DNA of 64,000 nucleotides from Sulfolobales archaeon HS-7 (lineage in GTDB: Archaea; Thermoproteota; Thermoprotei_A; Sulfolobales; Sulfolobaceae), in assembly GCA_019704295.1 (NCBI GenBank), contig AP024596.1, positions 1,216,001 to 1,280,000 of the forward strand, given 5' to 3'. The position numbers were made by a program, and so were the translations under genes. Every line of letters starts with the position of its first letter. Position 1 is the stretch's first letter. The notes below the pieces were generated by a model. The model was not told where the DNA came from, did not search any database, and was given only the letters and a program-made list of their open reading frames with translations. Below are positions 45,563 to 64,000 of the stretch, piece by piece.

Positions 45563-45859
45563 TTATAGGACTGAAATAGTGTAACTTTTTAAAATTAATG
45601 AGTATTAACTAATTCATGTCGTAAGTGTAAAAGTCTAGGATACTCTATTAAACTACCCTACCGGTAGAACTTTAATTATTGGGCCGTAAAATCAAGAGGG
45701 AAAGGCTTAAAATGAGGAGCACATATTACTCATGGACAAGCGTGATAATTGGTACCCTCTGCCGCATTAGTTTTGATGTTACTTCTCAATATAGAGTTCA
45801 AGAAAAGAAAATCGGCTAGCGATAACTCTGATCCTAGCTTTTCTTTGAGGGATTTAGTA

Positions 45860-48097
45860 CGGGAGACAATAACTAAATTTCAGCCGAAAAATTCGCGTTG
45901 AGGAACAGCGTACTCGCTCGGGTAAAAACCCTTAGGAGGGCTAGGAAATTCTAGTTAAGTCGTCTTAAGATAGGCCTATCCATTGCGTATATTACAAGGT
46001 TGAAGAGAGGAATAGGGCTGTGTCATGGATAGAGAAAGGAGGTACTTTAGTGCAACCTTCGCTCTAGTGAAAGCTCAAATGTAAAGGTTCCCTACGGCAG
46101 TATGTTTCAATTTGAGGTAAACGTCATAGCCCTTGCTCAGGCCTTTTCACGTTCAGGACACCCTACCTCCTAATTTAAGTACTTATCCAAGGAAGGCTAA
46201 AAGTCTACGACGAATTTGACGTTGGGGAAAAATAGGATAAAACGGGTAGCCTTCGTGTTGATGGTCCACGTTACGGTAACTCACGTTAGAATCGCTACCT
46301 AACTCGGTACTCCAAGGCGCTACACGCTTCGCCTCTAACATAGCTATGGAAACAGCGTGTTCAAAACACTACTTACGTTAACGTCGTAGTCCTTGACGTT
46401 CTTACCCTTGATCAACTTCGACCTCTTTGTAACTAAACCCCTGTACACGCGATCCACTAGAACGTGGTAGCTTATGCTGGCGAGCTTCCCCGCGAGCGCA
46501 CAAGTTACCTCAACACTACTTTTTTAGTGATGAGCCTCTCGTAGAAATCCGCAAAAGGTCCACGCCTAGCTATCCTAGCGGACAAGTAAAATGCCCTTCG
46601 CAAGTACTTGTTACCCTCTATCCACGTGGGACTTGCTATTTCCGCTCTGCTTAGTCCTTGGGGCACGCGTAAGCTCTCGCAGCCTTGGAACTTAGAAAAC
46701 GAGAGACGTCGCCGAACTCATCGTAGATCGTCGCAGCGGTTTAACTCCGGGGATCTTGGAGAGCTCTACAACTTCTTGCGGGATTTTCGAAAGTATTGCT
46801 TTCTCGACGCCATCATGTCCTCTAGTTGCTTTAACAGCTCCGCAAGCTGTTCAAGCTAGCCTCTCGGCTCGATTCAGTGTTTACCCCAATTTCTCGCCTA
46901 ACTCCCTCTTGCCCTTCTGCTTTAACTCTCCCTTGGACAGCTTCTCAAGCAGTTCCCCTCTTATTGAAAAGCTCTAACTTATACCGAGCGGTCTCTAGAA
47001 TTTTCCTTATCTCGTCACTTGCGCCTCTTTCTCCACAAGGCTTGTCCTGTATCTTGTTAGCTCCCTTATCTCCCCGTCAGGTATGAACCTTTGACTACTC
47101 CCGTCATGAAGGCCGTTACAAACCTTTGCGCGTCCAGTCCATCTTCTTCCCGAGTATTTCGGACAAATGTAGGGTTAACTACCGTTACCTTGAATCCTCT
47201 CTGAGTTTCTCGTGCAGGTAGTAGAAGGGCCTGTAGCCTCCATTATTCCCTCCCTGTAATCGCTAAGGAATTTCACGAGCTCCTCTATCCCCTCGTTGTC
47301 GTTTTTGATTCCCTCCTTGATTGAATACGGATTTCCCTTGTTCCACTAGAAGTTCTCCCTTTGCCACAGTTAACTCTCGGATATGTCTATCGCGAAGCCC
47401 TTGGTAACGACTTCCATGGTGTATCTTGCTCACTCGTGAAATATTACCTTAACTAGTGTAATACCGTCTCCCTCGTTTCATAGCACCAGCTACCGTCAAC
47501 CCCTAGAGAAACTTGTTACAACCTCGGGGGTTCTATCCCCTCTTGTGTTCTAGAGACATCACAGCCAGCCTCTTCTACGGGGTTTTCCCTCCATTGGGTC
47601 GGCCTTACCTTGTTTTGCCCTTGTCGCCTTACATGCTTAACTCACGTAATACTTGTTTTATCTCCATAACTAGTGGTACGCGTTTTCCCCGTGGAAGTTC
47701 CCCTAACTTTTTCCCTTGTCTTACAAGGGATATATTCCCTTCCTCTATCCCCAAGAGGAGGGATAAGTCCATTATATAATGTTACGGAGTTAGAGAAAAT
47801 CTTCTTGAACAATTCCTCTGCAATCAATGAGGGACTTATCCCTTGCCTTAATTTCCCTCACAGCAAGATTGAGGATGTCCCTCGCTCAATCTCTGACGTC
47901 CTCATTTCTACCCACTTGATACTACCAAAGATAAGATATTATTATAGGCATAAAAACTAGGTTGCCTACCTTTCTCTAACATAGAAATTTATTATTTCTT
48001 CACTTAGATGGAAATTTAGCTAAGCTCCGCTCTAGATAACGAGACTTTTTAACTTTTTGAAATTGTCTCATATTTAGTAAAAATGACGAAATATGGC
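45860..48097 (-). mobile_element. Decayed ISH3-family IS interrupted by an IS110 element
   Basis: End motif at ~48060-48097 and 47640-47910 are homologous (reverse) to 63229-63650; transposase C-terminal remnant (QIET) at ~46000-46260. Confidence 0.65.
46316..47632 (-). mobile_element. IS110-family element with pseudogenised recombinase (ATG at ~47417) and ~200-bp 5' non-coding end
   Basis: MEVVTKGFAIDIS...NDNEGIEEL (DEDD N-domain) and GNKYLRRAFYLSA...CALAGKLA (C-domain) across frameshifts; no TIRs. Confidence 0.78.
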
Positions 48098-48405
48098 TAG
48101 CTTTAGGTGATTTAGGTTTCCACTGCGGATCGTAATTATTGCAGATAAGTACTAAATAAAGGGAAGTATTAAGTGCGAACTCCATCAGTCGATACGATAA
48201 TATAAATTCATTTGAATTTGCTAAATAAATTAGATTCACTATAGAGGCTTAAATGGTTCTGGCTTTATTGGGAATTTAAATAATTGCTACATAAGGAGAA
48301 ATTACATTGAGGTAGATAATCTAAATGTATAATGGAGTTTAAACAAGGAAAAAATAATAAAGGGACTTACCACCCCATTTTAAATTAACATAAGTATGTT
48401 TATAA

Positions 48406-51400
48406 TCATATAACAATCTCGTATATCTGTCCATTACTGTTTAGCATATAACTGTTAGTCTGTAAAATCACTGGCACCCAGGTGTTAAACCCATTAAATA
48501 GCAAGACCGGTAGTGAGGTTGACGTCATTGTTGTCTCATTAAAGGTAAGCGCTGGAAATCCTGTTTCTACTCCTTCTAATGGGTATAGAGGTTCGGCATA
48601 TGTAGGGGATACTACGTGACAAGCAGCGCCCAAAAACGAACTCGATAACGAATTGGGATAAAATATGTTGGAGCTTGAGGGTAGATAACCGTCGCTTGAA
48701 GACATGAACATTACAGGATATTGTCCCACACCGAAGACGTACGATGATTGTACACCTACGTACTTTGTGTGAATCTCGACGCCGGTACTGTTTAGAACTT
48801 GTCCTCCAATGAAGGGAATCTGTTCTCCTAATGATTGGTAAATGTATCCCTGAATCTCCATAGCGAGGTTTAAAATATTCGATTGTGCAGCCATTTGTAG
48901 GCTCGGATCGTTAAGACCGCTCATTCGATTCAGCTCGTTTAGCATTGCGTTAGAGGAATAATCTACATCACTCTTTAACGTTAATAGTTGTTGAATATTT
49001 ACCCTATAATCCTTAAAGGAAGTCAAATCGTTCATGGAGTTAATTATGTTATCAATTGACGACTCTTCTTGAGATATGCACGATTGTATTGAACCCGAGT
49101 TCTGCTCTGCTAACATGGAAAGTACTTTCTGTCCCGCCGTTTCTATTCGATTTACCGAGTTCATTGTTTGTAAATAAGCTTGATAAACTTGGTAACTTCC
49201 TCCATATCCAATACCATTTATTATGTTTCCGAAAGTACTCTCCTGGTCCATAAATGAGGATAGAAGCTGCTGATTTATACCGCTATATAGCGCATTCATC
49301 AGATATTCTCCTGACGGTAGTAAAGATGTATATCCTGCCGTGGAAAGAAGTAGACCTATATTACTACCTAAATTCGCCCAGTATTCGTTAATGTTCTGAG
49401 CGGTGTAATTAAGGGCTGAGATTGCGCCGTACTCTCCGATACCATTCCCAAACCATCCCATATCGCACAAAAACGATGATAACCCAGGAACTCCCTCTAT
49501 TTCACTAAGCGCCTTATATACTGAGGACGTTCCAACATACCCAGATCCAATATCCGACATGATAGGTTGTATACCAAGATCGGATGAAAACTCAAAGTAA
49601 TCCCAAGGTTTAGGTGCGTTCGATAACTCCAGGAATGCCTGGATATTCTCTCCGTTAACTATAATTATTGGAACGGGTACTGCGACTCCATTGGAGTTTT
49701 GTTTATATGTTATTGGAGTCGAAATGCTAATTTGTTCCTGGTATACGAAAGCTCGTCCATTATTGTAATTAAGTCCAATTACCCCGATAGGAGAGTTTGA
49801 AGTTTGTGTTAAGCACAATCCTCCGTAGGAAAACCCGCTGACGTCTAGTTCAGCGATTGCGCCTGCAGGTATTCCGATTTTCTCTTTAGATGAAGAACTT
49901 AGCACGGAGCTTAACCCGGAGCTAGTCATGTTTATCTTGTACGTTTCTCCACCCTGTACAACAATTCCAGTAACATTCAGGAATGGTGAAAATATTGTTA
50001 TATTTGCAGTCCAGTTTTCAAGTGAGGGCGGGATTTTTAGGAAATTGAATACAACTGATGTCGGATTTATTACTGGTAACAATACTTCCTGAGAAAATTG
50101 TTCAAACGTCGAGCTAGTGTAGGATAAGAGATTTAGAGTTCCCCCAGTTCCATTCAGCAGCACCAGTGGACAATTCGAGGGCTCCGTAAAATTGCCCGTT
50201 ATATTGGAGAAGGCGTTGTACGGATAGGGTTCTCCCTCAATTAACAGTAACGTGTTGGCTGGAAAAGTCAGAACATTTTCTGTAGACACTACGCATGACG
50301 ACATGCCGTTAGAAACTAATACTATGCCGTTCATATTCGTACCTACAAATTCATTGACCTGTTTACTTCCCGAATACATCGCTATCACGTTAGTATTTCT
50401 ATTTACGATTATTGATAGGAATGCGTACCTCGATGGTAAATTATTTACACTGGATGGAAGCTGTCCATAGGACGAATATGTTCTGCTATATGTAACCCCG
50501 TTTACATTCCAACCGTTAGATGTAATAGAATTTATCCACGAATTGGAACTTATATTGAACTCATACTCATAGGGAACGAACGCTACTCCCTTCTGTCCAG
50601 GATTAACGGAAATTGTTTCATTCGTTCCCGTCAACGCATTTATAAACGAGGCCTGTAGAAACGAATCTCCCTGACTTGCAAAGGTAACCTCCTCTATAGG
50701 TCTCATGTAAATATTTCCTCTGTAAACCGTATCAGAGGATGTCACAGATGAGCTCAATGTATTCGGCGTGAAGCACGTAAAGTTCCTGAACAAATTATTG
50801 GAAAATGTCCCAATTCCTAAGTAGTTTAGTCGGGCATTGTAGGTGGGAGTTATAAAGGTCCATGAGTCGTTGTAATTCGTGTAGCCTGGAATATTTGGTA
50901 AATTAACTGGGGGGGGATTAGAACTTGAGTAAGTGAAATTGGCCTCTGAAACGCCCGAGGCATAAACGTTCTGATTTGATGCAATATTTTTGAAAGTTAT
51001 ATGCATAACCTGGAATTTATCATTTACTCTAACTATATTGTTATATATTGCAATTTCCGTTATGATCAAAGGACCATCTGGTGGAATGAAAGCTGGAATG
51101 TAGAGAGTCCCAACATATCCTATAGGAAAGTTGTGTACATATCCGCACAAGTTGACGCAATTATCTTCAGCGAAGTATAAATAGATGATATCACCGTTAT
51201 CCGTAAAACCACAAGGGATGGGAAGAGTGGCAGGATGAACAGAATAGCGTCCACGATAAGGTCCTGCCCACGATGACGGATAACTTGTCACACATCCTCT
51301 ATCTGTACCGGAATCATAATATGTCACGAACGCAGGTCCATTAGCTAATTCGCTGAATGGGGGGTAAATAGTTATCCCATATGCCAACCATGGACTTGGA

Positions 51401-52653
51401 AGGTATGAACTCCTCGACATATTGACATTACATATTCCGTCTTCTGGAAAACTAACACTTACGGTCCCTCCTAATGGATATCCAGGGGGATGATTAAATA
51501 CGAAGTATATCGGATCAACGAACTCAGGAGGTGCCCCCGTAAGAGTAAACCACGTTTCAGGTTCTGGTAGAAAAGGTGGAGCACCTTCATCCAGATAGGT
51601 ATTATGAGTTCCATAATGTGGAAATATTACCACGCGAGGTCGTATATTTGATATATATGGTACGCATCCTTTCCCTATGTAAACGACCACCTCGTTAGTG
51701 TCATTAGACGCATTAACATATTTGTAACTGGCAAACAGTGAACGTATTTCCCACTTTTCGAAATTAAATCCGTGACCCGTCAGTCCAGTATCCGCTCTTG
51801 CCATTGCTTCCAAATTCAGAAGTGTTCCATTTGGGATTAGGAAAGTTTTATAATAATTTTTATAATTATAAAATTCGGATATAGAAGGACGAATATAATA
51901 CTGATTTCCTCCTGACGAATCGAGGTAACTACATCCAAAAAGTGATGGTATGCCAGGGTATATTGTTGGCACGCACGGAATGGGTGATATAAATACAACA
52001 CAAATTGATAGATTTACGTTGGATTGTTGTTTTTGTATGAAGTTTTCCTGGCTTAAAAGCCCCATTTGATTCTTAAGTAAAGATGCAATGCTTCCCTGTA
52101 TCTGATTCTGATCGTTACCTAGTTTAAAGTATTGGGGAGTTGGAGGGGCGGGATACCAGAAAATTTTTCCTGTGGATGTTACGAATCCTACTACACCCGT
52201 AATGTAAGGCACGGCAATCTCTTCCCCAGGGTTGAGTAATAGTTTATTGTTAACATTTTGACCGTTGGTGAAGAATGTAAACGCGCTAGATAAGGGAAGA
52301 CTGCACTGTCTCAATCCCTTAGGTATCTGCAGAGACGACGTAGATGATAATGATGCATAATACGGGATGCATGAAGCAGGGTTGTTAAAATCTATTATTA
52401 AAGGCTGGGAATCTGGCGTCGAGTAATACATTATACCTACAACGCAAAATGGAACATTACCACTGTTTACTAAAAATGCCAGAGTCCCATCTCCAAACAC
52501 GTTACCTTCGGTTTGCGAGGCTTGAGATTCTGTGTAAAGAGAAACCTGTGAGGCCTGTAACGAACCCTGATACAAATATAAATAAGCTGCTAATGCGCTC
52601 AGAATGACTAACAACAATAAAGCGATCCCAATTATCCCCAAAACATCATTCAT
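48406..52653 (-). CDS. 1415-aa pilin-domain-fused surface protein (giant minor pilin/adhesin candidate)
   Basis: Pilin-like hydrophobic N-terminal helix, then VNSGNVP, LNPGEE and FVTSTGKIF echoing neighbouring pilins; beta-rich Cys-rich middle; helical region near the C-terminus; adjacent to TadC/ATPase. Confidence 0.75.
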   Translation of the reverse strand: MNDVLGIIGIALLLLVILSALAAYLYLYQGSLQASQVSLYTESQASQTEGNVFGDGTLAFLVNSGNVPFCVVGIMYYSTPDSQPLIIDFNNPASCIPYYASLSSTSSLQIPKGLRQCSLPLSSAFTFFTNGQNVNNKLLLNPGEEIAVPYITGVVGFVTSTGKIFWYPAPPTPQYFKLGNDQNQIQGSIASLLKNQMGLLSQENFIQKQQSNVNLSICVVFISPIPCVPTIYPGIPSLFGCSYLDSSGGNQYYIRPSISEFYNYKNYYKTFLIPNGTLLNLEAMARADTGLTGHGFNFEKWEIRSLFASYKYVNASNDTNEVVVYIGKGCVPYISNIRPRVVIFPHYGTHNTYLDEGAPPFLPEPETWFTLTGAPPEFVDPIYFVFNHPPGYPLGGTVSVSFPEDGICNVNMSRSSYLPSPWLAYGITIYPPFSELANGPAFVTYYDSGTDRGCVTSYPSSWAGPYRGRYSVHPATLPIPCGFTDNGDIIYLYFAEDNCVNLCGYVHNFPIGYVGTLYIPAFIPPDGPLIITEIAIYNNIVRVNDKFQVMHITFKNIASNQNVYASGVSEANFTYSSSNPPPVNLPNIPGYTNYNDSWTFITPTYNARLNYLGIGTFSNNLFRNFTCFTPNTLSSSVTSSDTVYRGNIYMRPIEEVTFASQGDSFLQASFINALTGTNETISVNPGQKGVAFVPYEYEFNISSNSWINSITSNGWNVNGVTYSRTYSSYGQLPSSVNNLPSRYAFLSIIVNRNTNVIAMYSGSKQVNEFVGTNMNGIVLVSNGMSSCVVSTENVLTFPANTLLLIEGEPYPYNAFSNITGNFTEPSNCPLVLLNGTGGTLNLLSYTSSTFEQFSQEVLLPVINPTSVVFNFLKIPPSLENWTANITIFSPFLNVTGIVVQGGETYKINMTSSGLSSVLSSSSKEKIGIPAGAIAELDVSGFSYGGLCLTQTSNSPIGVIGLNYNNGRAFVYQEQISISTPITYKQNSNGVAVPVPIIIVNGENIQAFLELSNAPKPWDYFEFSSDLGIQPIMSDIGSGYVGTSSVYKALSEIEGVPGLSSFLCDMGWFGNGIGEYGAISALNYTAQNINEYWANLGSNIGLLLSTAGYTSLLPSGEYLMNALYSGINQQLLSSFMDQESTFGNIINGIGYGGSYQVYQAYLQTMNSVNRIETAGQKVLSMLAEQNSGSIQSCISQEESSIDNIINSMNDLTSFKDYRVNIQQLLTLKSDVDYSSNAMLNELNRMSGLNDPSLQMAAQSNILNLAMEIQGYIYQSLGEQIPFIGGQVLNSTGVEIHTKYVGVQSSYVFGVGQYPVMFMSSSDGYLPSSSNIFYPNSLSSSFLGAACHVVSPTYAEPLYPLEGVETGFPALTFNETTMTSTSLPVLLFNGFNTWVPVILQTNSYMLNSNGQIYEIVI

Positions 52654-52680
52654 TCTGCCAAAAATTAAATACTTAATGGA

Positions 52681-52692
52681 TATTTAAACTTT
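52681..52692 (-). promoter_or_regulatory. BRE/TATA promoter (AAAGTTTAAATA) of the 1415-aa gene, leaderless spacing
   Basis: Consensus Sulfolobales TATA ~28 bp upstream of ATG 52653. Confidence 0.65.
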
Positions 52693-53024
52693 GTTATTTG
52701 AAGATCATGACCTTTTTATTAAAAATTCCGTAAGTAAAGGCTAACATAAGCTCAATCCCTCAAAACTTCCCTAATTTACCTAAGTAATGTTAATGTTTTT
52801 TGAGGAAACTTCACTAAAGTATTTCAAATAGTATATATATATTCTTTCCTTTTTTTGGACTTTTATGTATGAACAATTAAAGAAGTTCAAATTATAATTA
52901 GTCCCACCGATAACGCTAGTTATTCAAAAATTGGAAAATCGCCATTCTTAATATAAAAGGAGCCCCCAGAGAACTCAGGAAACATAAAAAAATAGCGGCG
53001 CGAACCCTTAAAGATAAATTGGCT

Positions 53025-55175
53025 TTAAAGTAATGCTAACAAATGAAGAGCTAGTATTACTGAGGAAGAGAAACCGAAAGCCGATTGTAAGGCAGGTTTT
53101 ATAAATGTGAATATTACGATGCTTATTGTTGAAACCGTAACTGTGCTCATAGCTAGCTTGGAATCAGCAATTGTTCCAGTAATAGCCTTGTTTAGTATTA
53201 AGCCTAAAATTATTGAGGAAATTTGAATGAATACATATACTATGTTGAAGTCTGAACTGTTTATCTGAGTGTTAAGGAAGGGGAGTCCCTGAGTGCTTAC
53301 CCCTTGAAGCCCTGAAAATATCTGGTTTGAATTAAAAGAGGACAATAAAGATAGAGTTATTAATGAAGTTAAAGCAAGCAAAGCAGGCGTAATAATGGAG
53401 ATTATTTTGTAGAACCTTAATCGCGCTTCTGCCTCCCTCTTAGCGTTAACATAAGTGGTTACGAAGCTATGTATTTCCTCTATTAGGAGGGGAGAAATGT
53501 TTCCAGACTCGGTAAGTATTCCTAGGAGGAAAAAGATAAATTTTCCTAACCAACTAACGGTCCTAACTCTCACATTATTTAAAGTCCTACCTCTTTTTAT
53601 TTGCATAGCTATGTTTTTAATAATTTTCGTGAAAGCCGGTTGATAGGTCTTTGACTCACTCCTATTTATTATCGCTTTGGAGAGATCGTATCCTATTTTT
53701 CTGAATTCTGCAAGATCTCTTAGCATAGTTGGAAGCGAAGTCTCCACCTCCTTAATTTCGTTAAGCTGCGGTCTTACTTGTACATAAAGGAGGAGAAGGG
53801 GTACTATTACCGCCCCGTAAAGTGTAAGATATATAGGCACATTTGTAAGATATAATATACCTCCTAGCGCAATACCCAGAGCTACCGGAATGGTTAGATT
53901 GTATCTGACTTTATCGGGAGTTTTAGGTCTTACGCCCTTCGTCATGAAGTACAGCGCAAGTCCGAAGAGAAATGGTAGGACGAGTAGAAGATTAATGATT
54001 TGTGTCCCTCCTAGACCAACCAGGACTATAAAGATACTGGGGACGACTAAGAACAGAATCACGACGGCTTCACCCAAAGATGATATTCTCTCTGAAAACA
54101 ACATCCACTTTAGCGCTAACCACTGGGTAAATTCCTTTTCCTTATCATTTAAATACGCCTCCAGATCTCCTCCACTTGTGAAAACAGCTGAATATCCGTA
54201 TAGGAATGCGGAGTACTCCTTTGAAGTTCTCAATTCGGCCCTTTTTGACACAACTTCTAACATAGATTTCCCAAAAGTCATAATATCGCGAAGGAAAGCC
54301 GATGCTTCCATCTTAAAAGCAGTAAATACGTCAGTTTCCCTTATTTTTCTAAAGACGTATGTTATTGGTAGTCCCGATGACGATGCTATGGCCACAAGGG
54401 CAGCAAAGAACGGTAATTCGTAAAGGTTGAGTTCTCTGGCTTGCGATGCCTTAGAATATGTGTCAAGATAAGGATAGAAGAAGAATAATGCGGGGATTGA
54501 TAAGATGACTCCATAAACTATTAGAAACATTATCGGAGGGAACGGTAGAGTTATGCCGATTAAGGGAAGTCCGTAATTTACAAGTGCAAATATCCCAGCG
54601 GCCAAGATCACTGATACTGGAATGTAGTCTATTCCCGTGGCGCTGTAATCTATTATCTTGAAAACCATGTCTTCGTAACTTCCAGCTACGAGAACGTTCT
54701 TCTCAATCTTCTTGACATACCATCTCACTAACCTCTGAAACCTCTTAGTACCCAACAATACCTTCGCAACTTTCACCGGATATATTCCGTGCAATTTATT
54801 GACTTCCTGCTCGATTGCCCTTTTGTACTCAGGAAGACGGAACGTTGAGGCTATTACCTCGAAGATTATAAGTCCTACAAAGGCCGCTACTACAGCCAGT
54901 CCTATTGTGTTTGCATAGAAAGGATTGTTAATAACTGCTATGAGGAAGTGATCTATCGGAATCAGGAAGAATGCAAGCACGACATCGAGTATTAGAAAAG
55001 CTAGGAGGAGAACGGTGTCCCTTGTTCGTGAAATAACAATAAGGAACAACATTAACTTTACGATGGGATCGTTACCTACCATTTTGCTCTTCTTAGTAAT
55101 GTTACTTTCCTCCTTCTCCTTGGGTTTCTTTTCCTTAGGTTTCATTAAATCCCTAAGTCCTGCCAACCCCCTCAT
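53025..55175 (-). CDS. Type IV pilus/T2SS-F membrane platform protein (TadC/ArlJ-like, two T2SSF domains)
   Basis: ELPFFAALVAIASSSGLP and SLPTMLRDLAEFRKIG repeats, SGGDL and ESGN, multiple TM; ATGA overlap with the ATPase. Confidence 0.9.
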   Translation of the reverse strand: MRGLAGLRDLMKPKEKKPKEKEESNITKKSKMVGNDPIVKLMLFLIVISRTRDTVLLLAFLILDVVLAFFLIPIDHFLIAVINNPFYANTIGLAVVAAFVGLIIFEVIASTFRLPEYKRAIEQEVNKLHGIYPVKVAKVLLGTKRFQRLVRWYVKKIEKNVLVAGSYEDMVFKIIDYSATGIDYIPVSVILAAGIFALVNYGLPLIGITLPFPPIMFLIVYGVILSIPALFFFYPYLDTYSKASQARELNLYELPFFAALVAIASSSGLPITYVFRKIRETDVFTAFKMEASAFLRDIMTFGKSMLEVVSKRAELRTSKEYSAFLYGYSAVFTSGGDLEAYLNDKEKEFTQWLALKWMLFSERISSLGEAVVILFLVVPSIFIVLVGLGGTQIINLLLVLPFLFGLALYFMTKGVRPKTPDKVRYNLTIPVALGIALGGILYLTNVPIYLTLYGAVIVPLLLLYVQVRPQLNEIKEVETSLPTMLRDLAEFRKIGYDLSKAIINRSESKTYQPAFTKIIKNIAMQIKRGRTLNNVRVRTVSWLGKFIFFLLGILTESGNISPLLIEEIHSFVTTYVNAKREAEARLRFYKIISIITPALLALTSLITLSLLSSFNSNQIFSGLQGVSTQGLPFLNTQINSSDFNIVYVFIQISSIILGLILNKAITGTIADSKLAMSTVTVSTISIVIFTFIKPALQSAFGFSSSVILALHLLALL

Positions 55176-56797
55176 ACCCCTATGAGGTTTTTAGACTGTG
55201 AAGCAATTATCTGGTCTATTTGTGCAGGCTCCAAATAGTATAACCTAAGGTAACCTGCTAATTCGTTATAACTTGATATCTTCATTTTCATAAGTGCCCT
55301 AAGGAACTCTACCCTTCTCTCTGCTTCATACTTCAATGTGGAGTCATCCCACGCAAGGTAAGTGGCAGCGTCTTTTAATTGATAAGAGTTTTGTAACACT
55401 TTGGAAATACTATTTGGTGTAGTTTCGTTTAGTACGGTATTGTATTCAAACACCTTCTGATACGTATTACTCGTTCCCTGAGGAATGTTTTCCCATATAG
55501 TCATAATTCGTCTGTACTGTTCTCTAGTTTTGTAATCTATTAATCTGTTTACTGATACAATTGAGGACAATAGTTGTTCAAATTCCCTTGCGGTCACTTC
55601 AGGCAATAACCCTAAAATCCTCGCCCTAACTTCTTCTGGGTTAGCACCGTGAAATGTGGTTATGCCTCCGTGACCTGTTGCAGAAGCCTGAACTAAATTA
55701 CCCATTTCCGAACCTCTTACCTCTCCCACTATTACGTAGTCTGGCCTATACCTTAAGGATGTCTTAACTAGTGCATCCATTCCAATTTCTTTCCCTGAGG
55801 CAAAAGCCACAGTTCTCGTGAAAAGTCTTATCCAGTTTTCATGTGGAAGTAGTAATTCAGGTGTATCCTCAATAGTGAGGATTTTCGCATTAGGATGAAG
55901 CAGCGTTAATAACGCGTTAAGGAAAGTGGTCTTTCCCGAACCCGTAGGTCCCACGATTAGAATGAATTTCTTAGCCTCGGCTAAAATCCATAGATATACA
56001 ACCTCTGGTATACTCGTCATCCCCTTTTGTATTAAATCAATAATCGTAAAGGGTTTTTCTGGATGCTTCCTTATATCCATGGTAGAACCAGGGAGTGAAA
56101 CCTCATTACCGTATGTCGTTGCAACTCGATGACCCTCCTTCAGAATGGCATCCTGTATTGGGTTCGCCAAGCTAATAGTTTTTCCTCCTCTTTCCATTAT
56201 CTTTTCCACAAGGGACTTTACCTCAGTCTCGCTGTCAAATATAATGTTAGTCGGCAACCTGAGATATTTGGTAAAATACTTGTGTACAACTGTAACCGGC
56301 TTTCCAAATCCCGATATCTCAATTTCCTCAATGTTTTTGTCATAAATAAGAGGTGTTAGGATTGAATAACTCATTTCCCTGATAACCATATATACTAACT
56401 TATCTATGCTTGAACCTTCCACTATTAGATCAAGATTCTCCGCAATATTTTGTAAATATTCTCTTATTTGTTTTTTCATTGCAAAAGGTGAAACTTTCTC
56501 ATCATAAACGTCCCCCAAGATAGGTACAGACACATACATGTATTCTTGAATTTGGTTTATTATATCCTCCTCCTTTGGAAGAATGTTCGGCTCTTTTATA
56601 AAGTAGTATCCCCGACCGTTTATCTCCTTTATCGTTATTTTTACATAAGAAAGAATCGGATCTACTTCGCTAAGATCATATTCCGATAAAATTTTCCCTT
56701 CTGGGGGAATGCTCTTTACCTTCAAAATTTTCTCTGCGCCTGCATCCTCCTTATTCTTATCAAGAATCGTTTTCCTGAATACTGGAAACTTAACCAT
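55172..56797 (-). CDS. Type II/IV secretion-family assembly ATPase (TadA/ArlI/PilB-like)
   Basis: GPTGSGKTT, TIEDTPEL, LRYRPDYVIVGEVRG, TGHGGITTFH. Confidence 0.95.
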   Translation of the reverse strand: MVKFPVFRKTILDKNKEDAGAEKILKVKSIPPEGKILSEYDLSEVDPILSYVKITIKEINGRGYYFIKEPNILPKEEDIINQIQEYMYVSVPILGDVYDEKVSPFAMKKQIREYLQNIAENLDLIVEGSSIDKLVYMVIREMSYSILTPLIYDKNIEEIEISGFGKPVTVVHKYFTKYLRLPTNIIFDSETEVKSLVEKIMERGGKTISLANPIQDAILKEGHRVATTYGNEVSLPGSTMDIRKHPEKPFTIIDLIQKGMTSIPEVVYLWILAEAKKFILIVGPTGSGKTTFLNALLTLLHPNAKILTIEDTPELLLPHENWIRLFTRTVAFASGKEIGMDALVKTSLRYRPDYVIVGEVRGSEMGNLVQASATGHGGITTFHGANPEEVRARILGLLPEVTAREFEQLLSSIVSVNRLIDYKTREQYRRIMTIWENIPQGTSNTYQKVFEYNTVLNETTPNSISKVLQNSYQLKDAATYLAWDDSTLKYEAERRVEFLRALMKMKISSYNELAGYLRLYYLEPAQIDQIIASQSKNLIGV

Positions 56798-56829
56798 ATC
56801 CTATTAATTAAATCGTTTATTAATAGATG

Positions 56830-56841
56830 TATATAAACTTT
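56830..56841 (-). promoter_or_regulatory. BRE/TATA promoter (AAAGTTTATATA) of the ATPase-TadC operon
   Basis: Consensus TATA ~33 bp upstream of ATG 56797. Confidence 0.65.
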
Positions 56842-56852
56842 CATGAAAGAAT

Positions 56853-57015
56853 AAGCAATTAGGGTTTCTATTGTGAATTGTAATTATTACAAACCGCAAT
56901 TAAATAAAGGAAATTGTTAAGTGCTAATTCCTACCTAGTCTATGCAATTGCATTAGATTGAATTCATTTTATCTTTCTAAAAAAACTGAATTTGTGGCAA
57001 ACCAGTAAAAGGTCC
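56853..57015 (+). mobile_element. MITE family A copy
   Basis: TTGTGAATTGTAATT...AAATTGTTAAGTG...CCTACCTAGTC...ACTGAATTTG; colinear with 39251. Confidence 0.75.
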
Positions 57016-58224
57016 ACCATCTGGAGTTGAGGAAATTAATTAGATCTCTGTAATAATTTCATAAATTTCTACAAATAAATATAGAGTGAAATAGCAAAAT
57101 ACCAGATAAGTGAACTACCTTAATCCTCGCTGATAAAACAAAAATTTAGTAATTATATCGCTTTATACTCTAAAGTTCATGTGCCTACTTCTATGGAATT
57201 GAATTAACTCGGTTTAAGGAATCATCTTGAAGAAAAGAAATTGAGTCCTTTGTTTTTAAAATATGAGAAATAACTATCCTAGGATTATATCAAAACTAGA
57301 GTAAGTTAATACTACGTCGAATCTTACGTAAATATTATTAGTAGGAACTATAATGATCTCATCGGAGTTAAAAGCACTTAATTTCCTTTGCTAAACATTT
57401 CGAGAACTGACGGATTTCAGTAAAGTACTAATAAATTTTTGGTCTGCCTTAAACGAACTTGAGGGGTTTGCACAGCCCCACAGTCTCATTTGAAAGTGTC
57501 CAATGTGGGACTGTTAGTTCCTTCTAGGATTTAATTTTGAGATATGTGAATAAAAGGGATTACATTAGGCTGAATTGATGGTAAAATACAGGGATTTCAG
57601 TAAATTAAACGCCCTGTTAACATGTTCTGAACGCTTAGAAAAGGATCGACTAGTTACGCTAGAAAAGCTCAATCCCTAGGTTTGATTCTAAAAAATCACG
57701 CTCTTTCTACTACACTAAATAAACTAATTTTTATATTACTGCTTTTGAAATATCTGAACGAATTTTATCCATGATAGATACGTTTTATAACTTTCTAGTT
57801 TATCTAGTTATTCACATTAATTATGTATTGAACAATGTCTTGAGAAAGCACTCGTCGGAGCTGTATCTCATTTGCAAGAAGACTGAGAAATTCAAGGACC
57901 TTACATAATAAGCCTTAAAGGTCTAGGTGATACACTCCTTATACCCATGTCTATACTTCTTCTCCATACTTAATCCTTACCTAACGCTATCGTTGGAATT
58001 TAATCAAAGATATTCATTACTGAATTAAAACAAATGAAACTTAGAAAAACTGGAATCTGTCATCGACTCTTACGAATCTTAAGATTTTCAGACACTTGTA
58101 ATCACTCTAATATCGGCTCATAAAAATGGCAGCATATAGGTCTGAAATTATTAATCGGGGTGGATTATCCTTTTTAAGGAAAAATTAATCACCAGTATGC
58201 GATTATGAATTCACTCCATAAACG

Positions 58225-58617
58225 TTATTGTCTTAACGCATATAGGAGTTCTCTAAGAAGTTCAAGCTCCGCATTAACCTCCCTTTCTAAACTCCTTCTT
58301 AGAGGTAAAATTCTCTTTGTCGTGAACCTTAAGTGAAGAACTGTGTTATCGAGATAGGGAATAAGAAGGACTACCAACTGATCGAGTGTATAGTTATTCT
58401 TAGATATAATCCATATAATATATTGATCTTTCAGATGAAGTGTAGCGGTGACTTTACCGTTAATTAAATAGGTGAGATTACTAATTTTACTGATTTCCTC
58501 AACTTCATAGAATAGTCTTAGACAACCCGAATTTAGGAAAAAGGATTGTAACTTCCTGTAATTATAAGGTAACTCTTTCTCAAGTATGATTTCTTTCACA
58601 GTATTATTTCCTGTCAC
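58225..58617 (-). CDS. Hypothetical protein (possible START/SRPBCC-like fold)
   Basis: 130-aa intact ORF; strand-helix start, beta-strands and a long C-terminal helix. Confidence 0.5.
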   Translation of the reverse strand: MTGNNTVKEIILEKELPYNYRKLQSFFLNSGCLRLFYEVEEISKISNLTYLINGKVTATLHLKDQYIIWIISKNNYTLDQLVVLLIPYLDNTVLHLRFTTKRILPLRRSLEREVNAELELLRELLYALRQ

Positions 58618-58938
58618 ATCATATTTATCAATTTTTTGTTTGTCTAGAACTATGTTATTTCATTCAATTGTTGAATTATAATTAGATATTATTGGTACAA
58701 CTTATTATTAAAATACAGGAAGGGCTAACCCTGGAAACTACACGGAAAATTATTAAGATATTTAGCTGCGACATCTTTTTATTAAATCCGTATTGCGTTA
58801 TTATGGGGGATCTTGTTTATCTTAGGATAAACAAAAATTAGCATGAATCATACCTAGGGACTTATACTTACCATGTAAAAACAATTCGAAAACAAATAAA
58901 AATTTTAGCTTGAAGAATAATATAAACTCTATACTTCT

Positions 58939-59412
58939 CTAATATATAGTATAGTGTTCTGATATCGAGGTCGACTGGCTTGTACCAGAAGCAGTCGTTC
59001 CAGTGCCAGAAATTTGTATCTCTACCGTGCTACCAGACGGTATATTTGCTCCTTGTTGTTGTACTAAGAACCACACAACCATTTGGTCGCCAGGATTTAA
59101 TGTCCCGATACTAGTATTCGAAACCGGATTCACACTACCACTATAAAAGACGTTTCCAGTTAGACTAAGAGCTATGCCACCTGTATTTTGAACTGTGACG
59201 ATTATATATTCGGTTTCTCCCCCCAATACTATTGCATTAACATTAAGAATGGAGAGTGATGCCTTCGCTGAATTACTTGTAAGGAGATGGGCTACATAGT
59301 ATGCTACGAAAGCGGCAGCAACTATGACAATTAAGATCAACAACACCGTACTAATAATACCCTCTACTCCTCTTCTTACTTTCCTATTATTGTATCTTTT
59401 CTCTACTATCAT
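58939..59412 (-). CDS. Archaeal type IV pilin (class III signal peptide), probable major pilin
   Basis: RKVRRG|VEGIISTVLLILIVIVAAA; VQNTG; LNPGD. Confidence 0.9.
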   Translation of the reverse strand: MIVEKRYNNRKVRRGVEGIISTVLLILIVIVAAAFVAYYVAHLLTSNSAKASLSILNVNAIVLGGETEYIIVTVQNTGGIALSLTGNVFYSGSVNPVSNTSIGTLNPGDQMVVWFLVQQQGANIPSGSTVEIQISGTGTTASGTSQSTSISEHYTIY

Positions 59413-59437
59413 TTCAAAAATATTTTTTCTGGACTTA

Positions 59438-59449
59438 TATATAAACTTT
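59438..59449 (-). promoter_or_regulatory. BRE/TATA promoter (AAAGTTTATATA) of the pilin gene
   Basis: Same 12-mer as the ATPase promoter, ~26 bp upstream of ATG 59412. Confidence 0.65.
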
Positions 59450-59460
59450 TCCGCTTACTA

Positions 59461-60417
59461 GACTCTGTAACAAAAACTCTAAGTAATCCTTACTTCCCAT
59501 TTCGAACACGTAAACAAGAAGTTGACTCAGAAGGACTTCGAGGACTTCAAGGAGTCAATAGAGGACTTGATCACCGCAAAAGGAGAGTAGGGTAGGTAAG
59601 GTGGAGATTGAGGAAAGGGAAGAGGTTAACTAGGTTAAGCCTCGGTAAAGAGTTAGGGCGTCACACAATGAGGGGAAGTTCATGTAAACATGGGAAAACA
59701 AGGGAGGAAGAGCAAGTTAACCCCCAGGGCGTACCAATAATCAATACCTAGGCCAACAGGGAAGCACAGGACTAGCGTGACTAACAAAGCAGGAGATAAG
59801 CTACAAGACGGTAGAGAGACTTGTTTAATGTTTTTCCTTGTGCTTTACAACATGCTCTCAAAGAGCGTAGTGGACTTCGTCAATGGACAGGCTATTCCCT
59901 AGTGAGCATTACTGGAAGAAGGTGAGAAGTCCGGGAAAGAGGTGAAAAAAAGGAAAGCACTTCGCGTACTCTTCATTACCTAGGCAGTAACTTAATCGCT
60001 TAGTTACTCGCTCAAGAGCGAGAGGCTTACGAGGCCCTCTAGTTTCTGAGGGATTTTACCGTGCAAGTTGACTCCTTGAGGGTTGACAAGTACTACGGCA
60101 AGTCTGCACTTGACGACTTCTATAATTCCGAGGTCTATTTAACCTAAATCTAACTTAACGATCGATGGAGGGAAGATGTCGAGATGACATTGAGGTTCAT
60201 TAGCCCATTGGAATAAAGGAGTCAAGCCTGAGAACAGAGTCCCCGATCTCCTTTAAGGAGGACAGGGCGTATCATAAACAGGGTCGATAAGAGAGGATCC
60301 ACTTGACGTTCCTAACAAAGGTCGTAATTCACGACATACTGTGGTCTAAAGCATTAGATTAAAAATCCTGAAATCATATGTAAATTTGCAACCCATTAGA
60401 TTAATTTGTCTCAGACT
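59461..60417 (+). mobile_element. Degenerate IS (ISNCY, ISC1043/ISC1048-like), second copy
   Basis: Ends GACTCTGTAACAAA and TTTGTCTCAGACTC; reverse-complement homology to 36232-37234; many frameshifts. Confidence 0.75.
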
Positions 60418-60555
60418 CCTCTTTTGCCTTGTAATTTCCCTAAATTTCTGCGGCCCTTTCTCAAACTTAATGCTCGGTAAGCGATAATCTTAGGTTTGAA
60501 TTAGGTACTATTAATATTGTAGAATTTCAGATGATTTGGAAAACAGAATATATAG

Positions 60556-61386
60556 CAGTGGTATTATCCCAATTTTACTAAAAATAATATAATTTCGAAA
60601 AACCAAGGGAAAATCTCGCCAGCTAAAGTAAAAATAAGTTAAATTTCTTTTTAAAGCGGGGAAAGGATCGACCTTTGTATCGGAGAAAGGTGCATAAGCT
60701 AGTTTTTGCGCGTATAGTGATACCTTGTGTTTGGCATTATCAAAAGGAAAGAAATGAGGACGTTAAAGTTTAACCGAGGGAATTCTCAAATCCTTGGTAT
60801 AAGGGTAAGGAAACCCCGGGATGAGTTCCTTGGCAAATAAGTTACTTAAACCCGTTTAAGTTCATTTCCTCCAATCCTAAGAACATCGTGAGATGGGTAA
60901 GATCCCCTCCTCAGGGTATAGGACTACATCTCCCTTGTGAGATACTGGAAGTGGTTGAGGAACTTTTGGGAAGGATTATCGAATTCTGTGAGTTGCACAT
61001 TATTTTTCAGAAGAGAAGAACGTCCTGGGACTTGCCGAGACCTTTCTGAGCTAGACAAGGGAGCAGCGACACTAAGGAACGATCTTTAAGGGGTAAGAGG
61101 CTTAAAGGGATTAAACGCCTTCGCCAGCTTCATAGGTCTAGCTTACAACATTCAACAATTTGGAACCCTTGTAAAACCCTGAAATCTTTGCTTTAAGACC
61201 TTACTAAAAAAACTCGTTCCTAGCCTTGAATCTCGAAAATTATATGATTACTTCTAATCATGCCTTAATAAACTGATTTTATATTATTTCTATTCTCATA
61301 ATCGAGCGAATTTAATTCCAGTAAGATGTGTTTTACAAATTTTTTAGTTTATCTAATTATTCGCAATAATTACACGTTCGACACTG
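60556..61386 (+). mobile_element. Internally deleted ISH3-family IS
   Basis: Begins CAGTG...CCAATTTTACTAAAAAT, ends CACTG; 5' part homologous to 63229 onward. Confidence 0.7.
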
Positions 61387-61483
61387 TAACATAATTAGCT
61401 AAAAATTTTTACATAATATTCAAGTAAACCTCAAAACTTGAGGTAACGAAATTTTTAAATAGAAGATAAGAAAAAAACTCCTA

Positions 61484-61987
61484 GTGAATAGAAGAGCAAC
61501 ATCGGTAATTATATCGACGGTCCTCCTATTATTGATCACTTTGGTAGCAATATCACTAGTCATGTATTATTATGGATCGCAAATACCATCAGCGGTTAGC
61601 GTATCACTACAAAAGGAAAGAATTGCTATAAGGGAGGGAGGGCAGTTACTTAATTTGATTTACTTTTACTGTAATAGTCCCTGTTACAGCGCTACGTTTT
61701 ACGTTGAAGACACATCTTCACTACCAATATATATACAGGCGGTATGCCTATTGAGTCCTGACGGAACTGTAAGTCTATATACGGAAGGGTTAAATGTGGG
61801 TAATTCACTTAATGGTTTGGTAGAAATCTGTAACAGTAACGGACCATTACAGACGACTAATATTGATGGCGTTGAATATATAATCCTCTTTTCACACGAA
61901 ATTTATTGGATTCATATAGATTATCCCGGAAATATTGCTTCAATGAAGCTTATTATCAAGAGTAATGGATTTTATATTGAGGTGTAG
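61484..61987 (+). CDS. Type IV pilin-like protein (class III signal peptide)
   Basis: MNRRA|TSVIISTVLLLLITLVA. Confidence 0.85.
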   Translation: MNRRATSVIISTVLLLLITLVAISLVMYYYGSQIPSAVSVSLQKERIAIREGGQLLNLIYFYCNSPCYSATFYVEDTSSLPIYIQAVCLLSPDGTVSLYTEGLNVGNSLNGLVEICNSNGPLQTTNIDGVEYIILFSHEIYWIHIDYPGNIASMKLIIKSNGFYIEV

Positions 61988-61990
61988 TTG

Positions 61991-62416
61991 ATGAGTATGA
62001 AGGCCCAAAGCTCTGTAATAGTTATGATTGCAGTAATGGCAATATTCTTTCTAGCGTTATCATCAATTGTTTATGTTCAAATGATAATGGGAACCATTAC
62101 CAACGAGTATAAGTCAATATACCAGATCGATGTATTGAAGGGAAGGGAATCGCTACTTGTAACGGTGTATCAAAGTGAGCAAGGCTATGTCCTTACTATT
62201 GTAAACAACGGTCCAATACAGACAAGAATTACCGGAATTTTTGCAGTATGTAACAGCGGTAATTATTTAATGAAATGTCCGTTGAATAACGGTGCAGATC
62301 AAACTTTGTCTCCTCAACAAAGTATAGTATTAACCTATAACCCGCCTAACCCAACTAACGTTGAGGCATACATAGTAGTTACTATGTATGGAAACGTTTA
62401 TTATGCAGCGACGTGA
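61991..62416 (+). CDS. Type IV pilin-like protein (minor pilin)
   Basis: MSMKA|QSSVIVMIAV; RESL, VNNGP, LSPQQS, VTMYGNVY; GAGGTG RBS before ATG 61991. Confidence 0.82.
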   Translation: MSMKAQSSVIVMIAVMAIFFLALSSIVYVQMIMGTITNEYKSIYQIDVLKGRESLLVTVYQSEQGYVLTIVNNGPIQTRITGIFAVCNSGNYLMKCPLNNGADQTLSPQQSIVLTYNPPNPTNVEAYIVVTMYGNVYYAAT

Positions 62417-62420
62417 GAGC

Positions 62421-62891
62421 ATGATGAGGAATAGAAAAGAGACTAGAGCAGTTTCAGAGGTTGTAGCCTCGGTTATCTTAATTTTAATAACTCTTTCTGC
62501 AATGAGTTATGTCATATATTACTTTATGTACAGATACTATGAAGAAGGAGCTGGACTAAATTTAGAAGCAAATAGACTAATATTATCGTCAGGGCAGATA
62601 ATATCAACACTTTACGTTTATAATAACGGTACGGATTACGTTTTCTATTTTGAAGATATTGGTAATTTCAAATTGGATCTGCAGGGGGTATGTTACATGA
62701 CCGGCGGAAAATTAGTTAACATAAGCGCTAACGCGCCTATATATAACTATTCTAGTGTGGTTAAATGCGCACCAACCACAATTTGGCCGCGAGAAGTTTA
62801 CTGGATAGTTCTAAATGATGGTGAACTAAGCTCCTTTAATGGTATTCTCTATCTTAAAATAAACGGTGTATTCATACAGCTACAGGGATAA
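62421..62891 (+). CDS. Type IV pilin-like protein (class III signal peptide)
   Basis: MMRNRKETRA|VSEVVASVILILITL; paralog of the 61484 gene (GQLL/GQII, FYVED/FYFED, EIYWI/EVYWI, NGFYI/NGVFI). Confidence 0.85.
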   Translation: MMRNRKETRAVSEVVASVILILITLSAMSYVIYYFMYRYYEEGAGLNLEANRLILSSGQIISTLYVYNNGTDYVFYFEDIGNFKLDLQGVCYMTGGKLVNISANAPIYNYSSVVKCAPTTIWPREVYWIVLNDGELSSFNGILYLKINGVFIQLQG

Positions 62892-63228
62892 TATCTAACA
62901 TATTTCGTCGACAAATACTTCAATTGATAAATTCAAAATATTTTCCTAATAAAATAGTACTCGCCAGAGTGTTATGTAAATAGCGTTAACAAGGATTGAT
63001 AAGCTAATTGGAATTTAAAACTTTCAATTGCTTTCTATCAAGAAGAATACAGCGGAGCTTAGGAAAGTGCTTGTTTTATAACCTATCTCGGAACTACACG
63101 AAAATCTTTTGACCAATTACGATATACAGGAAAGAAGTCCTATGGCTTTAGGTATGATAACGTCTTAACTAGGTTGGGTCTATGTCCCCTCTTTCACGTC
63201 TTAGAGAGGATGTTGACTTACTCATGGA

Positions 63229-64000
63229 GCAGTGTTGTTTCGCCAATTTTACTAAAAATGAGACAATTTTTAAAACATGGGAAAATCTCGCTCAAGAGAG
63301 TAGAAATTAGCTAAAAATTCGGTTAAAGTAGGGAAAAGATCAACTTTTATCTCAGAGGAAGATGCGTAACCTAGTTTTTATACGTATAGTAATACCTTGT
63401 GTATTATCAAGCGGGTAGAAATGAGGACGTTAAAGTTTAAGCGAGGGACTTGCAAAATCTTAGTATGAGGGAAATCAAGATTAGGAACAAGTCCCTCGCT
63501 AATAGTAGAGGAAGCGTTTAAGAAGATTTCCTCTAATCCCCGGGACATTATCAGGAGGAGTAAATCCCTCCTCTTGGGGAATAGAGGAAAGGATTACATT
63601 TCCCTTGTAAGACAAGGAAAAAGCTAGGTAAACTTCTGGGTAGAACCTTAGAGTTCTGGGGGCTGTGCTCGATCTTCTCTGATATCGTGCTTGGATTTGA
63701 CGAGACCTTCCTAGGTTTGGGTGAGAAGGAGGCGGAAAGAGTGGGGGACAAACTCTTCTCGGGAAAGGCCAAGGTTAGATCCACGGATATCTTGTCTCCC
63801 GTGAGATGTAACGTGGTTACCCAATTCGCAGTTCCAGGGGATCAAAAGCCCTCAGAGTTTCTTCAAGATTTCGTCAAGAAGGCTGTATAGTACATCAACT
63901 TGAGTTACGTTGTTGCTGACGCTGGATTCCTCAACCTCGAGATCGTCAAGGAGTTACCCGCTAAAACCGTGATCAGAGGGAAAACTAACTTGAAGGGAGT
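63229..64000 (+). mobile_element. Decayed ISH3-family IS, running off the window
   Basis: Terminus CAGTGTTGTTTCGCCAATTTTAC; transposase remnant SYVVADAGFLNLE with stops and frameshifts. Confidence 0.75.

Follow-up and report, generated by a model that had tools for sequence, protein, structure and literature searches.

Gene content and state of the locus

The window analyzed here is a 64,000-nucleotide stretch of the genome of Sulfolobales archaeon HS-7 (contig AP024596.1, positions 1,216,001 to 1,280,000), and it carries seven genes of a type-4-filament (T4F) locus within 14.5 kb. Their presence, coordinates and intactness are as given in a preliminary description of this DNA. Four genes are on the minus strand. 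These encode a giant protein of 1415 aa (48406–52653), a BasF-like platform protein of 716 aa with two stretches of Pfam T2SSF (53025–55175), a BasE-like assembly ATPase of 541 aa (55172–56797; Pfam T2SSE, E 1e-33) and a BasC/UpsA-like small pilin of 157 aa (58939–59412). The other three are on the plus strand and encode a BasA-like pilin of 167 aa (61484–61987), a BasB-like pilin of 142 aa (61988–62416) and a second BasA-like pilin (62388–62891), the true start of which is probably at 62421. All four small pilins have class III-like N-termini: RRG/VEGIIS, RRA/TSVIIS, KA/QSSVIV and TRA/VSEVVA, in the order of their coordinates.

All seven reading frames are intact, including those of 1415, 716 and 541 codons. 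By arithmetic, with 6.3% stops per codon at 40% GC, the chance of an open frame of 1415 codons is about 1e-40. The motifs of the ATPase are complete, and its Walker A sequence is GPTGSGKTT. The spacers are of a different nature. Those at 45563–48405, 56798–58938, 59413–61483 and 62892–64000 have 26–51 blastn matches each elsewhere in the genome (49 for the second, 51 for the third) and contain no long ORF, and thus we regard them as repeat or IS debris, in line with the dead IS elements first seen there. A MITE-like unit of about 130 bp is found at 56863–56992, and positions 59461–60418 are 99.7% identical to genome positions 1636071–1637028 by blastn. The spacer at 59413–61483, made up of IS remnants, lies between the BasC-like gene and the operon of three pilins. 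The fragmentation of the locus by IS debris and the inversion of the BasC-like gene count against the explanation that we favor below.

Searches with Pfam and NCBIfam gave no Arl or UpsX family matches in the region, which bears out the earlier statement that genes of the arlF/G/H/X and upsX types are absent, and no Aap-specific accessory genes were matched within the locus. The prepilin peptidase is encoded elsewhere, as expected, by a Peptidase_A24 (PibD-like) gene at genome position 473614.

Relationship to the bindosome system

The bindosome consists of BasEF and BasABC of Saccharolobus solfataricus (Zolghadr et al. 2007, 2011). It constitutes T4F subclade 4I (Makarova et al. 2016, PMC4858521), and a Bas filament has never been observed (PMC3047682). 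In NCBIfam, the best match of the window ATPase is BasE at 396 bits, followed by FlaI at 263, and the platform protein matches BasF at 320.6 bits versus 224.5 for UpsF and 13.7 for ArlJ. A point against the assignment is that both proteins are far below the curated cut-offs of 1000 for BasE and 1300 for BasF, which belong to narrow "exception" models passed only by Saccharolobus-type proteins (1028–1138 bits). With the BasE model, scores exceed 1000 bits for true BasE and are about 400–460 for the clade of the window type and about 300–335 for Ups proteins.

The ATPase tree gives the same assignment. The window protein and a paralog from its own genome group together (support 100) within a clade (99) whose sister group is true BasE (SH-aLRT 94). 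The resulting Bas superclade (98) excludes Ups and is sister to it, and the window ATPase falls outside the Ups clade (100). Further ATPase paralogs of this genome, at 120 kb, 1.70 Mb and 1.73 Mb, fall separately. Among the searched Sulfolobaceae genomes, the canonical and the window-type ATPase never occur together: the canonical type is found in all eight g9 genomes, and the window type in two of three g13 genomes and, in two copies, in HS-7. Because the two types are mutually exclusive, we read the window type as the Bas ortholog of its lineage, duplicated here. An ATPase paralog with 61% identity is located 330 kb away at genome positions 1602703–1604265, and the compact Bas paralog at 1.60 Mb keeps the canonical divergent layout. 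A third intact pilin triplet with a giant gene sits 6–12 kb past the window.

The pilins are also of Bas type. The two BasA-like pilins match NCBIfam BasA (E 2e-8 for 61484–61987 and 4e-9 for 62388–62891; alignment A2), and the pilin at 61988–62416 matches BasB (E 1.4e-12; alignment A3). The pilin at 58939–59412 matches arch_flag_Nterm (26.8 bits, cutoff 20), has weak UpsA and BasC matches, and aligns with the genes in the BasC position of other loci (alignment A4). These three alignments include the BasA-, BasB- and BasC-position genes of Sa. shibatae. Candidates for class III sugar-binding proteins, whose surface function depends on the Bas system, are found by pattern elsewhere in the genome, for example at 1315612–1317030 (KKG/LTGTQTAIVV) and 1151867–1153258.

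Like the Bas system of Saccharolobus solfataricus, the window locus combines a BasE-type ATPase and a fused double-T2SSF platform of BasF type with three small pilins of the PilA family that bear class III signal peptides. In both systems a secreted accessory protein belonging to one family is encoded next to these genes, and the gene of the prepilin peptidase is located elsewhere. It differs in several respects. ATPase identity is only 43–47%, the window type forms a sister clade, and HS-7 has two BasEF pairs, three pilin triplets and three giants. In the window, the pilin order is A-B-A' with C separate and inverted, the gene order is interrupted by IS debris, and the accessory protein has 1415 aa versus about 506 aa. 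We conclude that the locus is a second copy of the known Bas machine and not a new kind of pilus.

The giant protein and its family

The giant protein has a leaderless pilin-like head (aa 1–200, 52054–52653; alignment A1), a beta-rich middle with a conserved central module (about aa 650–900, 49954–50706), and a helical, variable C-terminal part (about aa 1030–1415, 48409–49566), all on the minus strand. Its sole TM-like segment is aa 4–22, and no second TM helix hidden by a frameshift was found in the other frames.

The N-terminus reads M-N-D-V-L-G, where Met1 corresponds to residue +1 of a mature pilin, with D3 and G6 after it. No class III leader, i.e., a PibD-cleaved peptide with a [KR][GA] end, precedes it: there are ten open upstream codons without a start, and then a stop. 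In eight of ten family members an in-frame stop lies 1–14 codons upstream of Met1, and all members begin with M-x-[D/E]-x-[L/I]-G and a hydrophobic helix, followed by an Ig-like domain. Judged from sequence, the N-terminus of the giant family thus mimics that of mature BasA and dispenses with the class III leader. A TATA-like box (TTTAAATA, 52681–52688, minus strand) is placed about 31 nt before the ATG of the giant, and other family members have such a box about 30 nt ahead of the start codon, which points to a promoter of the giant gene's own and a near-leaderless mRNA. A T-run is located after basF. This promoter and the T-run weigh against assuming co-expression with basEF.

The preliminary description had called this a pilin-fused protein. 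The architecture of the head agrees with this in alignment and in the AF2 model; a class III signal peptide is absent, and the head resembles a mature pilin instead. The model (mean pLDDT 66) has a helix at residues 2–45 and strands at 50–167 that form a beta-sandwich to about aa 170. With hhalign, the head gives a weak match to BasA-like pilins (probability 56%, E 1e-4) and Met1 is placed on the +1 residue of BasA. In a search of the HS-7 genome with a family profile built without Saccharolobus rows, the best match after the giant family itself is BasA (E 9e-4). The top Foldseek matches are an archaeal pilin, archaellins and FlaF/FlaG, all of them weak (E 5e-3 at best, for 8fk7), and the VIA structural comparison gives head–pilin Z scores of 6–7 (6.9) that are not above generic Ig folds. 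A complex prediction for the head with mature BasA-, BasB- and BasC-like pilins scored 0.01, in a run without controls, and counts neither for nor against docking. The structural matches of the head are too weak to tell a pilin from a stator.

The central module is common to all large family members and includes an F-S-N-[WI]-[ST]-G motif. Homology searches of genomes give matches to aa 621–945 of the paralogs, and BLASTP to the metagenomic giant gives E 4e-9. Searching the ESM Atlas with parts of the giant gave only sub-threshold InlB B-repeat leads, in the central module. The C-terminal part appears mostly helical to about aa 1280 and then beta, a rough pattern taken from an otherwise unusable AF2 model of the last 425 aa run as a single sequence (pLDDT 32). 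It has no similarity to the C-termini of the paralogs, and those of all three HS-7 giants are mutually unrelated beyond a common W-D-[WY] junction. The genome thus encodes three different C-terminal modules, of which two have a hydrophobic helix following the common W-D-W junction. A second TM helix near aa 900–1000 is present in paralog B, in paralog C and in the Sulfuracidifex protein (genome G042).

The whole giant found nothing beyond itself in Pfam, NCBIfam, PDB sequences, the ESM Atlas or a word-based homolog search, and no toxin or enzyme families were matched in Pfam and NCBIfam. Several candidates were rejected. Two profile hits, P0130 (SLBB repeats) and P0131 (cadherin/RTX), were discarded as family members, being repeat proteins of bacteria with a match to a short G-D-x-I-x-V-P motif. 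The giants have no NCBIfam match to SlaA, and a SlaA-like protein (95.9 bits) with a SlaB-like neighbor is encoded at 667.5–674 kb of the genome. A toxin–immunity layout was discarded as well: no giant has a small conserved ORF downstream, and the 79-aa ORF that follows the window giant sits in a repeat.

In addition to the two paralogs in HS-7, with which identities are about 30–38%, homologs of 236 to 1436 aa adjoin Bas-type genes in Sulfuracidifex, hot-spring metagenomes and Saccharolobus. In G042, Bas-type genes C, A and B are followed by a giant of 1190 aa; genome G041 also has a homolog beside Bas-type genes, as do metagenomes L026 (1234 aa) and L049 (236 aa), and in Sa. shibatae a 506-aa form directly follows basF. 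The linkage of the giant to the ATPase and platform, on which the first description had staked its reading, recurs in other genomes. A profile built without the Saccharolobus rows still recovers the Saccharolobus proteins (E about 1e-6), and the head of about 170 aa common to the giant and the Saccharolobus protein is detected by BLASTP at E 4e-4. The giant is thus an expanded form of a conserved, overlooked Bas component. From its published description, the Saccharolobus form of about 506 aa is probably arCOG08524, which Makarova et al. 2016 (PMC4858521) list at the bindosome locus as a "~500 aa secreted protein" and an "adhesin or S-layer protein". It and the window giant are encoded beside basF or the pilins and share the M-x-[D/E]-x-L-G N-terminus and the head of about 170 aa; the window giant is almost three times longer, with the central module and the helical C-terminal part in addition.

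Proposed role of the giant

We favor, as somewhat more probable than the alternatives taken together, a model in which the head of the giant docks in a Bas pseudopilus made by the BasEF/BasABC-like set, most likely as its cap. The BasE-like ATPase and the BasF-like platform would assemble three to four PibD-processed BasA/B/C-like pilins into a short, envelope-embedded pseudopilus. The pilin-like head of the giant is synthesized leaderless and can do without prepilin peptidase; its helix, imitating the mature BasA N-terminus, would dock into this structure, most likely as the first subunit. Once docked, the head may hold a large, glycosylated and lineage-variable ectodomain at or beyond the S-layer, with a role in adhesion or envelope organization. 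Bacteria offer parallels in tip or priming subunits, such as GspK with the minor pseudopilins, PilY1 with FimU-PilVWX, and the modular pilins of Gram-positive T4P. The likeness is in the idea only, namely a large subunit that fits only at the filament end and whose gene accompanies those of three to four minor pilins. These subunits have no homology to the giant, and the leaders of the pilin-type ones are cleaved by prepilin peptidase; PilY1 is not a pilin.

A possible though rather less likely alternative is that the giant is an unprocessed, pilin-derived protein retained in the membrane by its N-terminal helix at the base of the Bas structure, as an analog of ArlF/ArlG, and that it links this structure to the S-layer or fills the pseudo-periplasm and is not extruded. 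Like ArlF/ArlG (FlaF/FlaG), the giant is encoded in a T4F locus and has an N-terminal membrane helix that is not cleaved, without leader or cleavage site, followed by a beta-sandwich of pilin/archaellin type; FlaF and FlaG also rank near the top of the structural matches of its head. The second TM helix in paralogs B and C and the G042 protein would keep these in the membrane; it is as compatible with an anchored protein as with a tip, and argues against a free tip for them. In addition, S. solfataricus deleted for basEF has a disturbed S-layer and cell shape (PMC3047682). On the other hand, the window giant (giant A) has no second anchor, and the helix of its head imitates the N-terminus of mature BasA (x-x-[D/E]-x-[I/L]-G), which points to packing of the filament type. 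ArlF/ArlG are proteins of about 150–170 aa in a rotary machine, versus the 1415-aa giant, and no sequence similarity between them was detected.

Bas-type machines could also be extrusion devices for leaderless, pilin-headed giants whose C-terminal modules are swapped between paralogs, serving contact-dependent adhesion or antagonism on a T4F core. We consider this a long shot. If it were true, sugar uptake would be only one use of the bindosome.

The preliminary description had instead proposed a distinct, unclassified pilus of the Sulfolobales, with the giant delivered as its tip subunit in cell–cell contact or antagonism, and this we now find very improbable. The ATPase clade is indeed separate from canonical BasE, and the unrelated C-termini of the three giants after the W-D-[WY] junction recall polymorphic effectors. 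The reading fails, however, because the ATPase and platform are of Bas type, with BasE and BasF as best matches and the ATPase sister to BasE within the Bas superclade, and the gene content is that of Bas, a result named beforehand as one that would speak against it. None of the searched genomes has the two types together, a member of this accessory family also occurs in the Bas locus of Saccharolobus, and the giant has neither an immunity-like small gene after it nor matches to toxin or enzyme families. Least probable of all is that the window locus is a decaying duplicate, unused as a unit, with the compact paralog at 1.60 Mb as the working Bas: every spacer is filled with repeat debris, the BasC-like gene lies in inverted orientation 2 kb away from the genes it belongs with, and the paralog has the canonical layout, but all seven ORFs and the ATPase motifs are complete, the giant retains its TATA box, and the further triplet and giant past the window are intact.

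To our knowledge, no other type-4-filament system of the Sulfolobales is as poorly understood as the bindosome. Our analysis adds to it a further component, conserved across the whole Bas superclade, in which a leaderless pilin-like head carries 40 to 1240 extra residues. A pilin-type head can thus dispense with prepilin peptidase, and genome screens that rely on the class III cleavage site would miss this family, since it has no leader. Members of the giant family are specific candidates for the part that caps or anchors the bindosome structure.

The window locus and its place among type IV pilus systems

The window spans positions 1216001-1280000 of a genome that consists of a single contig of 2.15 Mb, with a GC content of 39.6%. 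Its genus has no other representative in the set of 47 Sulfolobaceae genomes compared. On the reverse strand of the window lie the gene of a giant protein of 1415 aa (48406-52653), a 716-aa platform protein with two T2SSF stretches (53025-55175) and a 541-aa T2SSE ATPase (55172-56797), whose gene overlaps that of the platform by 4 nt. Class III-like N-termini mark four small ORFs, at 58939 (reverse strand) and at 61484, 61988 and 62388 (forward strand). All of these are intact and in place, as the preliminary description had claimed. The spacers between them hold no long ORFs, and each has 26-51 blastn matches elsewhere in the genome. They include a MITE-like repeat of ~130 bp (56863-56992) with more than 25 genome-wide copies of 76-82% identity. 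A 958-bp IS fragment (59461-60418) is 99.7% identical to genome 1636071-1637028 by blastn, and is thus a recent copy amid otherwise old debris. A Peptidase_A24 (PibD-like) gene is encoded in trans, at 473.6 kb. Elsewhere in the window are a GH12 glycosidase and a Dpp/Opp-type ABC transporter (two ATPases, two permeases; 9776-16837), with a 690-aa family-5 solute-binding protein bearing an ordinary Sec-type signal peptide in the same stretch, a 976-aa thermopsin (22583-25513) and a secreted GH57 enzyme (42893-45562).

In NCBIfam, the best match of the ATPase is BasE of the bindosome assembly system, Bas (396 bits), and the platform protein scores 320.6 bits with BasF versus 224.5 with UpsF. Two of the small pilins are best matched by BasA and one by BasB; the fourth matches the archaellin/pilin N-terminal domain and, weakly, UpsA and BasC. 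These Bas-family scores are far under the narrow NCBIfam 'exception' cut-offs, which only Saccharolobus-type proteins exceed (1028-1138 bits). The BasE model gives 403-461 bits for proteins related to the window ATPase, as against 298-336 bits for presumed UpsE proteins. In an ATPase tree of 58 rows (IQ-TREE quick search, LG+C20+F+G4), the window ATPase pairs with its own-genome paralog (support 100), and the pair joins Sulfuracidifex and two metagenomic sequences in a clade (99) that is the sister of true BasE (SH-aLRT 94). The whole Bas superclade (98) is sister to the Ups clade (100); Bas and Ups have been grouped in subclade/subsystem 4I (Makarova et al. 2016, PMC4858521; 2026 PLoS Genetics survey, PMC13705601).

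When matches of at least 44% identity were counted across the 47 genomes, a single copy was present in each of 8/8 Saccharolobus-type (g9) and 2/3 Sulfuracidifex (g13) genomes, and two copies in the genome studied here; none of the 47 has both Bas ATPase types. Because the two types never coexist in one genome, we take the sister clade to represent these genera's Bas ortholog, which has been duplicated in the genome studied here. The preliminary description had proposed a distinct pilus built round a giant pilin-fused tip protein. Since the ATPase falls with Bas and the gene content is also that of Bas, the pilus is not a distinct one.

A second Bas locus (genome 1600632-1605833) is compact, with divergent genes in the order basF<-basE<- ->A->B->C. 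A third, intact pilin triplet (A-B-A') lies 6 kb past the window end, in a stretch (1285706-1296684, 6-17 kb past the end; loci L019 and L021) that also holds a 1436-aa giant paralog and has no BasEF pair of its own. Between this triplet and the paralog sits a beta-propeller-like secreted protein of 760 aa. Further T4F loci are found at 1702035-1707767 (a 511-aa ATPase and a 639-aa platform, with four pilin-like genes upstream of them) and 1726-1730 kb, and an Ups-like locus at 118-123 kb.

The giant protein as a companion of Bas genes

The linkage of the giant gene to the ATPase/platform pair, also part of the preliminary description, is borne out in Sulfuracidifex, Saccharolobus and metagenomic loci. 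Besides the paralog adjoining the third triplet, a 1300-aa paralog is separated from the second Bas locus by 8 kb. The order in Sulfuracidifex G042 is basF<-basE<- ->C->A->B->giant (1190 aa), and in G041 basE, basF, A, B and a giant cut off by the contig end. On metagenome contig L026, basE and basF are accompanied by two pilins and a 1234-aa giant homolog (E 5e-10 and 4e-9), with a thermopsin-family protease gene (5533-8130) between pilins and giant. The gene directly after basF in Saccharolobus shibatae encodes a 506-aa protein that aligns to giant aa 1-184 (BLASTP E 4e-4). It fits the description of a 'specific ~500 aa secreted protein (arCOG08524)' in the bindosome locus (Makarova et al. 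2016, PMC4858521), and is probably that protein. The plasmid-like metagenomic contig L049 (JGI 3300027937, 1-17731) holds a basal member of the Bas superclade, in which basE, basF, C, A and B are followed by a 236-aa leaderless member. Because this contig also carries ParB_N, a TFB-like zinc ribbon and a TraG/VirD4-like ATPase, its Bas cluster may belong to a plasmid or to an integrated element.

A profile of the head domain (aa 1-200) found only about nine true members among 1.84 billion representative proteins; two further matches, bacterial repeat proteins, were dropped. Without its Saccharolobus rows, the profile still recovered the Saccharolobus proteins (E about 1e-6), and its next-best match among all own-genome ORFs was a BasA pilin (E 9e-4). 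The giant protein is a conserved component of Bas. One member from a MAG (P0126, 987 aa, L048 931-3892) has 51 cysteines, far above its relatives.

A leaderless, pilin-like head

All ten members begin M-x-[D/E]-x-[L/I]-G and continue with some 20 hydrophobic residues; N replaces D/E once, in P0126 (M-R-N-V-L-G). Mature BasA-like pilins read [VIL]-S-[E/D]-[VI]-[IV]-G after [KR][GA]. From these matching patterns, Met1 of the giant corresponds in position to the +1 residue of a processed pilin, and hhalign places it on the +1 residue (probability 56%, E 1e-4). An in-frame stop lies 1-14 codons upstream in 8/10 members, with no intervening start codon, and the family has a TATA-like box about 30 nt upstream of the start codon. 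These genes cannot encode a leader peptide.

An AF2 model of aa 1-200, built from seven rows, has a helix (2-45) and a beta-sandwich (pLDDT 66). In Foldseek, the best matches are a pilin of Pyrobaculum calidifontis, archaellins and FlaF/FlaG, each of them weak (E 5e-3 to 0.1), and the VIA Z-scores of 6-7 are no higher than those of generic Ig folds. A pilin-like architecture is supported; the signs of homology to pilins are suggestive but fall short of proof.

Outside the head, only a central module (about aa 650-900) is conserved, and over the C-terminal ~400 aa the window protein and its paralogs have no similarity. A second TM-like helix follows a conserved W-D-W in both paralogs and the Sulfuracidifex homolog (P0002 aa 977-995, P0003 aa 990-1008, L020 protein aa 889-907). 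The window protein retains P-W-D-Y at this junction and, with the helix absent in all frames, has lost it. Its 20 N-glycosylation sequons and 19 Cys are what would be expected of an extracellular Sulfolobales protein.

Possible role in the Bas machine

The machine parts are all present: ATPase, platform, pilins and the in-trans peptidase. We suggest that the leaderless head would insert N-in, in pilin fashion, and that BasEF would take it up along with BasA/B/C. The giant would become the first subunit of a short pseudopilus, a cap position proposed because of its bulk, and its ectodomain would be displayed at the S-layer. The chief alternative is that it stays anchored at the base, in a role like that of ArlF/ArlG. 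A base anchor would also suit the second TM helix seen in three homologs, and the S-layer phenotype that a basEF deletion produces (PMC3047682). Identity with SlaA was rejected, since SlaA/SlaB-like genes sit at 667.5-674 kb.

The searchable literature yielded no account of the Bas-linked accessory protein as a pilin-like subunit that lacks a leader and is conserved throughout the Bas superclade, nor of its expansion to 1200-1440 aa and triplication in this genome.
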